Assembly (NCBI GenBank): GCA_965219095.1 | Contig: CBDCMT010000001.1 | Coordinates: 480,001-544,000 of the forward strand | Direction: 5' to 3' | Length of the DNA: 64,000 nt | Source: Bdellovibrionales bacterium | GTDB lineage: Bacteria; Bdellovibrionota; Bdellovibrionia; Bdellovibrionales; UBA1609 | Shown: positions 57,001 to 60,000 of the stretch, in pieces | How positions within the stretch are numbered: the stretch's first letter is position 1 | Layout: every line of letters starts with the position of its first letter | Program-made: the position numbers

Positions 57001-60000
57001 AGAAGGCTAAGAAAAAACTTTCAAACAAAGCTAAGCTTAGACCTTCAGCCCACAAACCTTCAATTTTAATTTTTTCATAAATGAGAGTTTCTATGGTCAA
57101 AAAATCCAAGCCTCCTAATAAAAAAGGAACCGTAAAGCTTGTAAAACAAAAGGCAAAAATGGAAATAAAAATAAGAAAAAAATCCTTTTTTAAATATGGT
57201 AGAATAATTTTTTTACAGAAAATAAAGGGAGAACTTTTTTCTAAATAAGCTCTTGAAAGCCAAAAACTCATTTTTCTTTCTATAAGACGAAAGATCACTA
57301 CGCTCACGAAACCTGCATTCATAAGAGTATGGGTGATGATAACAGGCCATAGTCCCTCAGAAGACGAAAAGTTCATAAAACTCAGAACCACAAAAAGACT
57401 GGGAAGAAAAGCAGGTATAAAAATAAGAACTTCAAACACTCTTTTTTTCTGTGTAGACTTTAAGGAAAGAAGAGATAAAGCTCCACAAAAGCCTACACAT
57501 AAAGACAAAAGAGAACTTAAAAAAGCTTGTAAAGTGGTATGCTTAATAGCAAAAAAAAGTTCACCGAAAGAGAGGGAGGACAAGGATCCTATCTTTAAAA
57601 AAAGAATGATAAAAGGCGAAATAAAAAAACTAAAAATCAAAAATTTTAAAAATTTCATTTTAGATGTCCCAACTCAAATTCTTTATTCTTTTAAAACTTC
57701 CTCGCTGAGACCATATCCAATGTAGCTGTTTTTTTATCATAGCCTTATACAAAACTTCATACAGTAATTTTTTTAAAAAGTAACATATTAGTGCTTTCAT
57801 TAAAATCTTCATATCATTGTTTCTTATAAAGCATGCATAAAAACCTAAGCCCTATGATTATAAGGTACACCTTACATTCCTTTCTGAAAAATCTAAAAAC
57901 AAATAAGAGCCTAATAGCTGTGTACAAAATTTTTTTGATAGCTTGCCTTAAAGTTCTTTTAACAAACACTGTTTTTCTCCTAGTTATGTTCTAAAAGAGT
58001 TGATTGCAGGTACGGGAAGAAGGGTAAATTTTTTTAATTCTATTTCCTATTCTTTTATCAGCTATATACTGTTTGTATTCATTCCAATTAAGCCCACTCT
58101 CTTCTACATAATTTCTGTAAACAGAAATAATAAGCCCTGAGGATAAAGATGTTTTATAAGCGTGTAAATTTTTTTTTCTATCCCATGTCCACGAAATTTT
58201 CTCTTCATAGTGTTTTTCCTTGTAAGGTATGGGCTTTTTAAATTGAGATAAATATTTAAGGCGAGCCTCTAGAAGGAGAGTCATTTTTAGATAATGTTCA
58301 GCACTTTGCTGTGGCTGAAACCCTCTTACTTCTATAGTATCTTCATGATTTAAATTAACGGCTTGGTATTTCCTACCTCCACCGCCACTCTCTAGAGGGA
58401 GGGAATCGCTGTGAATCCCATAAACATCGTAATTGATTCTATTTAGAAGGTAGTGGTAGTCAAAAGTAATTTCTTTATGAGAAAGAATACTTTTATCAAC
58501 TTCTTTTAATAAGCTCTTTAATTCTCTTTTAGACTCTTTACCTAAAACAGCTAAAGGAGGGGCGTTAAGATAATCATGGCTGAGGGCTCCCATAAACAAC
58601 TCAGAATTGTTATAAAGATCAACTAAGAAATTTCGAAATAAAAGAATGTTATTTTTAAAGTGTGTTCTTTTATCTAGATGGATATGGCCCCCTACTAATC
58701 GGTAGTGAGGTTTAAAACCTTCCTTTTTGACTGAATCAAAAATCAACTGTATGTTTTGTAATTGATCTTTGATTTGCCTTGTGGTCATAGGGGAAGCTTT
58801 AATTTCTATAACTGGCGAATCATAGGTGAGAAAATAATCAAAGCCGTCAAGAGTAAAACTTAAATAACCTTTAAATTTACAGTGATGGCATTTAGACTTT
58901 ATAATCTTACTTATCTTCGAAAGAGAGTTCCCTATACTATAAGAATCGTTAATTCTAGGGTTATAAAAAGTCCATTCAGGGCCAAAAAGTCCGCCCGTAG
59001 ACCATGCTTTCAAAGAAAAAAATAGAGTGAGAACAAATAGGAAAAGCTTCATATTTAACCTTTTTTTATAGTCTTTAGGTGTTTTTACAAATCACTTTTT
59101 AATTTTTCCTTTTAGGGCTTTTGATTGTATTTTACAAAGTTTTTAACATTATAACTCACTGTGTTATAATGTCAGAGTTGTCCAAATGAGTGTTGAGAGA
59201 AGTTTTTTTCTAAAACCATCTCTTTTTGAAAACAGGGATAAATAATAAGCTGTGATAGTCAATTCAAAATTCAAGATCCTGTAAATTAAATTGTGTAACT
59301 GATTTTTTCTCTTAAAGGTTCAAAGCATTCTACAAAGATCAAACTTGAGCAATCAAACTTAAACAATGTAAGTTTTATTTTTCACAAGCTTTATTTTCTC
59401 ATAATCTGTGTTTTCCAAGAATCAATCCATTTTTGCTTTTCTTTATAAAAATGACTTTGTATTTTTTGTATTTTAAGCTTTGGCAGTCTTTCAAAGTAAG
59501 TGCCTTTTATGAGGCCTTTTACAGAAGGATACATGTAATTACGTTGGCTTATAATCTTTTGAGCTTTCTTACTTAAAAGAAAACGTGCAAACCTTTCAGC
59601 TAACTCACAATTCTTACAAGAAGAGGGAATAGCCATATACTCAATCTGCAAGGGGTGACCTTTCTTAAAAGAAAGGGCTTGGTACTGAAATTCTGACCTA
59701 TCCTTCCAGTGATAAACAAGGGATGTAAGATAAGAGAAAATAAGACGTGCTTTCATTTCTGTAAATAAACCGTAGGATGAAGACCATGAGGGCGAAATAC
59801 GAAAGATGTTTTTTTTAAGTTTTTTATAGTACTCTAAAGATCTTGTTTCATTAAGAGTCCATAGCAAGAACTCAAGACCAGGAGTGCTTTGTCTTGGATC
59901 CTGCAAAACAATCTTCTTTCTTAATTCATCTGATAGAAGATCTTCTAAACGTTGGGGAGGAAAGGGGATTTGATTTTTTCTATAAATAAAAGTCATAGGT

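Follow-up and report, generated by a model that had tools for sequence, protein, structure and literature searches.

The P0001 Gene and Its Genomic Context

The window analyzed here is a 64,000-nucleotide stretch of a Bdellovibrionales genome (assembly GCA_965219095.1, contig CBDCMT010000001.1, positions 480,001 to 544,000). Its minus strand carries an intact open reading frame at 57991..59052, and the 353-aa product, P0001, is predicted to be an exported, DUF2126-related amide ligase with a glutamine synthetase (GS) fold. The gene is present in a single copy in this 3.1-Mb, 34% GC genome, and a single contig of a public sequencing run spans the reading frame with zero differences. Its composition (GC 33.5%, GC3 28.8%) is typical for the genome and gives no sign of horizontal acquisition. 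Pfam and NCBIfam yielded no match for P0001 at E ≤ 1, and searches of PDB sequences with the protein or its profile returned nothing.

Thiamine transport genes flank P0001 on the same strand, with the thiamine-binding protein gene thiB/sfuA (59391..60404; TIGR01254, over the cut-off) on one side and a thiP-like permease and a thiQ-like ATPase (55612..57658) on the other. Since thiB is directly followed by thiP/thiQ-like genes in 15 of 15 relatives examined, and a strong match to the P0001 family occurs in none of 18 other genomes of the host's own family, the P0001 gene is an insertion and the thi genes are its flanking context rather than its partners. The intact adjacency in relatives, along with the absence of thi neighbors from every other family locus, led us to reject a role in thiamine uptake. 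Nor does any neighbor family recur beside the ligase gene among the 24 Bdellovibrionota loci compared.

About 96 nt upstream of P0001 lies a sigma70-like promoter match (59148..59175, minus strand) that agrees with 11 of 12 consensus positions; it is predicted from the consensus only, and 10 such sites were found versus 7.2 expected in shuffled sequence. A palindrome with 13-bp arms (59146..59172), which has one further loose copy in the genome, overlaps this match and is a possible operator. Further upstream is a 34-bp repeat (59275..59308) with 39 copies in the genome, many of them beside transposase-like reading frames; it is the remnant of an insertion sequence end, which by eye looks IS630-like. 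Rfam had no match over positions 55000-62500.

Fold and Extent of the Family

The AlphaFold model of P0001, built from a 130-sequence alignment, has a pLDDT of 91.6 and a pTM of 0.90, and displays the catalytic fold shared by GS and glutamate-cysteine ligase (GCL). Foldseek placed YbdK (1r8g) at the top with an E-value of 1.3e-5, followed by glutamine synthetases and Dop, and VIA-align gave Z scores of 11.4 for both plant GCL and YbdK, 11.1 for GS, 10.9 for Dop, and 9.4 for PafA. In this wide structural search, the first 18 matches listed were all of the GS/GCL fold; at Z 11.4, 258-273 residues were aligned with an rmsd of 5.2-6.6. Among viral models, the best named structural matches were amidoligases (first named E 2.5e-6), and no viral relatives bearing the sequence patterns of the family were found.

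The model and the intact reading frame bear out the survey's finding that a genuine GS/GCL-fold gene lies at this locus. Its description of a family of several hundred clusters spread over Bdellovibrionota was likewise confirmed: a profile of 25 sequences, whose search supplied the cluster counts and listed the best 150 matches, found 673 clusters at E ≤ 1e-30 and 1333 at E ≤ 1e-3. The profile matched 55 of 301 genomes of the phylum at E ≤ 1e-5 and 44 of 301 at E < 1e-30, in 13 families. Named holders include Bdellovibrionales, Pseudobdellovibrionaceae, Oligoflexia, and Bacteriovoracia, and no member turned up in 18 genomes of a genus for which many complete genomes exist. Members are about 30% identical to one another. 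The claim that the family is unnamed held insofar as Pfam and NCBIfam offer no match, but it overlooked a clear link to DUF2126 and Amidoligase_2.

A Conserved, Partly Canonical Active Site

Active-site features were scored in 164 family proteins against those listed by Iyer 2008 (PMC2588565). All of the corresponding P0001 segments are encoded on the minus strand. The strand-1 motif G24-P-E26-W-T28 (58969..58983) reads ExT rather than ExE, as it does in DUF2126, so that the canonical GhExE / Ex[EH] pattern is absent from strand 1 of P0001, where its last position is T28. In the family, E26 is present in 157 of 157 proteins, and the second position of GhExE is T in 125, E in 16, S in 8, and N in 6. 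Both strand-1 glutamates bind magnesium in Dop (PMC8599861).

In core strands 2 and 3, the acidic positions D78 and E83 (58804..58821) are kept in 158 of 163 and 164 of 164 proteins, respectively. The [HD]x[NH] motif of strand 4 is represented by H123-x-H125 (58678..58686), with H123 in 164 of 164 members and position 125 occupied by H in 127 and N in 32. The strand-6 motif Ex[RK]x2D appears as E241-x-R243 (58324..58332); E241 is found in 163 of 163 and R243 in 162 of 163 members, and the canonical Asp three residues further on is absent, being R in 116 of 164 proteins and Q in P0001. The two arginine-finger positions, at and before strand 5, are not clearly Arg: they correspond to K228 (K in 129, R in 11) and N233 (in 128), and R246 or R236 might stand in for them.

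The predicted catalytic set is thus strongly conserved yet only partly canonical, because GhExE has become ExT in 125 of 157 members. The survey had reported the metal and ATP residues as kept. That is correct for E26, E83, H123, and E241, which are invariant where aligned, and nearly so for R243, but not for the second Glu of GhExE or the strand-6 Asp. On balance, members of the P0001 family are probably ligases.

Homology to DUF2126, a Predicted Ligase Family

The nearest named family, as profile-profile alignments indicate through a clear link, is DUF2126 (PF09899) rather than YbdK or PafA; the kin named by the survey, YbdK and Pup ligase, are not the closest. The ligase family profile weakly matches transglutaminase-DUF2126 proteins. 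With hhalign, the family aligned to short DUF2126 forms over P0001 residues 18-278 (prob 97.1, E 6.8e-11) and to a C-terminal DUF2126 core (prob 98.0, E 2.7e-13), in comparisons that favor a match, as the DUF2126 profiles comprised only 3 and 8 sequences, themselves found by the query profile. The two families are in register over GxE(P/x)TF (GxExTFT), which includes the ExT, and over DPxVxEVxxxP, GGG, NHP, and ExR.

A second relationship concerns Amidoligase_2 (PF12224), which hhalign matched over the first 117 columns (prob 94.5, E 7.5e-8). It also matched a Bdellovibrionota family of about 1000 aa at the border of PF12224 (prob 98.1). P0001 itself scores below the PF12224 cut-off. Of 130 members compared with Pfam, three matched DUF2126 (best E 0.0018) and two matched Amidoligase_2, all below cut-off. 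Against GCS2 sets, hhalign gave no match (prob <2), and no residue-level mapping to YbdK was obtained. The family that Iyer and colleagues typified by Rv2566 in 2008 is, to judge from the shared architecture, presumably DUF2126. Both DUF2126-type and Amidoligase_2 families are described by Iyer, Burroughs and Aravind 2008 (PMC2588565), where the formation of glutathione-like peptides is predicted for the transglutaminase-fused ligase family. P0001 would best be explained as a branch of the DUF2126 carboxylate-amine ligases that stands alone and is exported, its activity being predicted.

Predicted Export Signal and Cysteine Pair

Residues 1-18 of P0001 (58999..59052, minus strand) form a rule-predicted Sec-type signal peptide with a basic start, a short hydrophobic core, and an A-W-S end. 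Signal calls were made by a hydropathy rule, not SignalP, on the 154 members whose strand 1 is preceded by 15 or more residues. By this rule, 140 of the 154 members contain a hydrophobic 10-mer and are signal-like, which upholds the survey's statement that nearly all intact N-termini carry signal-like stretches; 117 of the 140 also have a basic n-region. A small-x-A c-region follows in 124 of the 140 signal-like members versus a background of 31%. Within the same 140, a segment of transmembrane length occurs in 8, a lipobox in 9, and a Tat motif in none.

A C55-x-x-C58 pair (58879..58890, minus strand) is predicted to form a probable periplasmic disulfide. Two cysteines are found here in 130 of 154 members, against none of the five signal-less members, a comparison to be read knowing that four of those five belong to one clade and that 24 other members also lack the pair. 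These features support an exported GS-fold enzyme in Bdellovibrionota, and, judged by its sequences, the P0001 family is a genuine and sizeable exported branch, so far undescribed, within a known ligase superfamily.

A Terminal Cysteine Tag Shared by Unrelated Proteins

P0001 ends in C349-x-x-L-F (57994..58008, minus strand), in which C349 is the third and last cysteine of the protein. We report this here as a new family tag, Cys-x-x-hydrophobic-hydrophobic, that sits either at the C-terminus or immediately after the signal peptide, and rarely in both places. A cysteine falls within the last 25 residues of 137 of 164 members versus 4% of internal windows, and is followed by x-x-hydrophobic-L/F. 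Among the 134 full-length, signal-bearing members, the tag is C-terminal only in 117, behind the signal only in 5, at both ends in 2, and at neither in 10 (p 1.7e-4); most N-terminal tags sit in one 18-member clade. The association of signal with tag inside the ligase family was not significant (p 0.26), because most N-termini that fail the signal rule are truncated or have weak signals.

The tag extends beyond the ligase. In the genome that encodes P0001, 13 of 1961 de-duplicated reading frames end in C-x-x-[LIVF]-F versus 0.33 expected, the 13 representing only about 4-5 independent families. One encodes a 1368-aa protein that begins with a signal-like stretch and combines ClpB-like AAA+ modules with an M41 (FtsH-type) protease; it has three Walker A motifs, its Walker A/B and HExxH motifs are intact, and the tag cysteine is the only one in the mature protein. 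Five others are paralogs whose N-terminal region folds like CCA-adding enzymes (model pLDDT 92.1; Foldseek E 1.4e-6, Z 11.3), with a second domain resembling ADP-ribosyltransferases at a Z score of only 3.6-4.7. Counts for this family come from the best 120 of 156 homologs, of which 101 are signal-like; a C-terminal cysteine is present in 80, an N-terminal tag in 21, both in 0, and neither in 19 (p 9e-13, uncorrected for kinship). Besides the ligase, the cysteine tag marks an unrelated CCA-nucleotidyltransferase-fold family and an AAA+/FtsH-type protease that is intact.

On inspection by eye, both a signal and the tag are also seen in many true PF12224 proteins of the phylum and in a SelO-like protein elsewhere. 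The genome that encodes P0001 has three secretins.

Fusions and Operon Partners as Clues to the Substrate

In two high-GC genomes from outside the phylum (G301 and G354), the start of a signal-less member coincides with the stop of a GshB-like ATP-grasp gene, which matches TIGR01380 with an E-value of 7e-70, under the cut-off; one copy is frameshifted and one intact. This pairing was seen in 2 of 147 genomes of one order, and G301 also encodes canonical gshB and GCS2 elsewhere in its genome. P0108 and P0150 are fused to CHAP domains, that of P0108 matching glutathionylspermidine (Gsp) amidase (E 1e-32). These two proteins, P0094, and the rotifer-annotated P0056 form a four-member clade without signals (support 0.95) that lies within the exported part of the family tree. 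A metagenome scan for the signal-less clade found a single locus, incomplete at a contig end.

Four exported members, all from one 18-member clade, are fused to a circularly permuted (CP) ATP-grasp domain. L003 and P0049, both CP-ATP-grasp fusions, are probably the same gene. An operon partner of the CP-ATP-grasp domain type is said to resemble glutathione synthetase (PMC6376114). In P0077, the fused domain corresponds to a separate, adjacent exported gene in locus L159 (44% identity). By eye, the fused domain of P0077 may be IucA/IucC-like and that of P0116 papain-like; Pfam, NCBIfam, and PDB sequence searches with both were blank. Transglutaminase-like and peptidase-like fusions also occur in the family, and a search for longer homologs found nothing, even though fusions exist. 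Together, the GshB-like, Gsp amidase, and CP-ATP-grasp partners, which are few and not independent, favor a first-step gamma-glutamyl-type ligase, and thus glutathione-like small-molecule chemistry over Pup-like protein tagging.

A Model for P0001 and Its Alternatives

The model that we prefer builds on the observed fold, ancestry, motifs, and tag statistics and comprises four steps of differing certainty, in which cleavage, destination, activity, and substrate are inferences. P0001 would very probably cross the inner membrane through Sec and form the C55-C58 disulfide. It would then, as is likely, bind Mg-ATP and phosphorylate a carboxylate, for which the gamma-carboxylate of a glutamyl group is the likeliest candidate; joining this to an amine would form an amide by way of an acyl-phosphate. 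The terminal cysteine tag might route P0001, with other nucleotide-dependent cargo, from the periplasm to an ATP-containing compartment of the prey or host, for which the balance tips slightly in favor. There, with a similarly narrow preference, P0001 would make or divert a small glutathione-like gamma-glutamyl amide and not a protein tag. The whole chain, from Sec export through tag routing to the small amide, comes close to an even chance without quite reaching it.

The main alternatives keep the ligase and differ on where or on what it acts. P0001 could be an exported effector that modifies proteins, ligating a Lys in a prey or host protein to a Glu side chain or a terminus, in the manner of ACD or PafA. 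ACD belongs to the GS family and is a ligase that is translocated and cross-links actin (PMC2908040), the P0001 family resembles effectors in having no partners, a patchy distribution, and divergent sequences, and its transglutaminase and peptidase-like fusions, along with Dop and PafA among the fold matches, fit such a role. However, signal-less members are coupled to enzymes that act on small molecules (GshB-like, Gsp amidase), no small modifier gene recurs nearby among reading frames of at least 120 aa, and most members lack an extra substrate-binding domain, which makes protein modification unlikely while leaving it an appreciable chance. There is a smaller chance that P0001 works in the predator or prey periplasm or on the envelope, for example on a carboxylate of peptidoglycan or of the cell surface that it would amidate using ATP leaking out of prey, and that the cysteine tag is a tether rather than a label for translocation. 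A Sec signal alone reaches only the periplasm, and nine lipoprotein-type members and the conserved, predicted disulfide pair agree with this location, but the co-tagged AAA+ protease and CCA-type nucleotidyltransferase have cytoplasmic substrates and cofactors, and envelope-biosynthesis neighbors do not recur.

Two further readings dispense with ligation or with export. The altered ExE and the missing Asp would suit a Dop-like amidase, a kinase-like phosphotransferase, or an ATP-independent binder, none needing outside ATP, and Dop shows that a GS fold can hydrolyze (PMC8599861). Yet E26, D78, E83, H123, E241, and R243 are kept in members only about 30% identical, and coupling to a second ligase is what a first-step enzyme would be expected to show, so a non-ligase is quite improbable. 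It is very improbable that the enzyme is cytoplasmic, for instance as a GshA substitute, with its hydrophobic N-termini either mis-called or serving as membrane anchors. This genome has no GCS2 or GshA match, and signal-less members sit with GshB-like genes; however, it has no gshB match either, the h-regions are short with cleavage-type c-regions, and the cysteine pair is absent in all five signal-less members.

Returning to the preferred model of delivery and small-molecule ligation, the idea of an effector gains support from the occurrence of the terminal cysteine tag on unrelated nucleotide-dependent enzymes. The P0001 family may possibly mark a phylum-wide export class. More specifically, Bdellovibrionota might use an undescribed two-part export label, in which a Sec signal is combined with a single Cys-x-x-hydrophobic-hydrophobic motif at one or the other mature end, and which delivers many nucleotide-dependent enzymes into the prey or host cytoplasm, namely ligases of the GS and ATP-grasp folds, an AAA+ protease, CCA-type nucleotidyltransferases, and AMPylases, with this ligase family among its most widespread cargoes; we advance this tentatively, leaning somewhat against it. 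On how Bdellovibrio-like predators reach and rewire the prey cytoplasm, a predation transcriptome paper invokes Sec and Tat export of degradative enzymes (PMC2797640). A short, movable tag shared by ATP-requiring exported enzymes would provide a handle, open to mutation and to reporter fusion, by which the cargo of any genome could be listed. In addition, the family supplies stand-ins for DUF2126 that are small, single-domain, and probably soluble.

Comparison With Known Systems

A full-text literature search, judged by title and the start of the abstract and leaving aside Iyer et al. 2009, which could mention secreted forms, returned no paper on the ligase family or the cysteine tag. For "DUF2126," a class predicted in 2008, it returned no paper and no experimental work. 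DUF2126 resembles the P0001 family in its ligase core, including the ExT, and in its links to CP-ATP-grasp and transglutaminase domains. It differs in that the P0001 family is about 350 aa long and stand-alone, with a signal peptide, cysteine pair, and terminal cysteine tag, and without an operon. DUF2126 is also cytoplasmic and N-terminally fused to transglutaminase, whereas a transglutaminase-like domain was seen in 1 of 24 long family members scanned. Amidoligase_2 is linked through the second Atlas set (at 0.91), 24% of whose members carry Amidoligase_2, but the P0001 family has the ExT, and no GATase or Aig2/GGCT neighbor recurs in 24 loci. GCS2 (PF04107)/YbdK, plant and bacterial GCL, PafA/Dop, and GS share the catalytic fold (Z 9-11.4), with the residues of strands 2-4 and the ExR kept; in contrast, there is no profile similarity to GCS2, structural identity is 7-14%, and these enzymes are all cytoplasmic.

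For delivery, the closest parallels lie outside this group. ACD of MARTX/VgrG1 is an ATP-dependent ligase of the GS family that is delivered to the cytosol of a foreign cell (PMC2908040). Unlike P0001, it is a domain of large toxins and no Sec substrate; no actin link is seen for the P0001 family, and ACD is absent among the fold matches listed for P0001. The glutathione-synthetase-like effectors of nematodes offer a second precedent in that a glutathione-pathway ligase gained a signal peptide and is delivered into host cells with altered activity (PMC5919673), although these effectors are eukaryotic, have the ATP-grasp fold, and were born by duplication of a housekeeping gene.

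Genomic Setting of the Ligase Gene

Around the window ligase gene, an insertion sequence end remnant, with 39 copies in the genome, lies at window positions 59275-59308, and several broken transposase ORFs occupy 50154-54546 and 62372-63115. The gene upstream of thiB (60525-62375) encodes a subtilase that also has a PilZ domain and, at its C-terminus, a membrane segment. Nested inside the exported ligase family is a clade without a signal peptide (P0056, P0094, P0108, and P0150), and in two of these four members, P0108 and P0150, the ligase domain is joined to a CHAP domain of the Gsp-amidase type. 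P0056 is annotated from a bdelloid rotifer assembly, which reflects either transfer or contamination.

Cys-Tagged Proteins

The Cys tag (Cys-x-x-hydrophobic-hydrophobic) also occurs beside family members. A putative SelO-like AMPylase (L156:4742-6598) that adjoins one of them has a signal-like N-terminus and a C-terminal tag, and the family genes at L049:5172-8417 and L166:6959-9342 are translationally coupled to genes for unrelated proteins bearing the tag behind the signal peptide. On contig C2 of the source genome, G000, three signal-bearing ORFs (646671-647645, 1996563-1997288, and 91525-91860) feature the Cys motif directly after the signal peptide.

The same contig encodes a 1368-aa protein (L041; 1116490-1120596) that joins a signal-like N-terminus, ClpB-like AAA+ modules, an FtsH-type M41 protease, and a C-terminal Cys tag, with intact catalytic motifs. 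Five tagged paralogs (L033, L034, L039, L043, and L044; 227439-233273, 1012073-1014505, 1850234-1852636, and 1968362-1970182) belong to one large unnamed Bdellovibrionota family with at least 156 homologs, whose architecture combines helical repeats with a CCA-enzyme-fold domain and another domain that weakly resembles ADP-ribosyltransferases.

Relationship to Amidoligase_2

Eleven proteins with signal-like N-termini match Amidoligase_2 (PF12224) above the cut-off (L053-L056, L058, L059, L061, L062, L064, L075, and L076), and most have a visible Cys tag; L057 additionally carries a fused R2K ATP-grasp domain. A borderline Amidoligase_2 domain is found in conserved proteins of approximately 1000 and 1860 aa (L063, L065-L074, and L077-L080), and the tag closes the C-terminus in the majority of the ~1000-aa forms. 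These borderline proteins are a bridge between the ligase family of P0001, the window protein, and PF12224.
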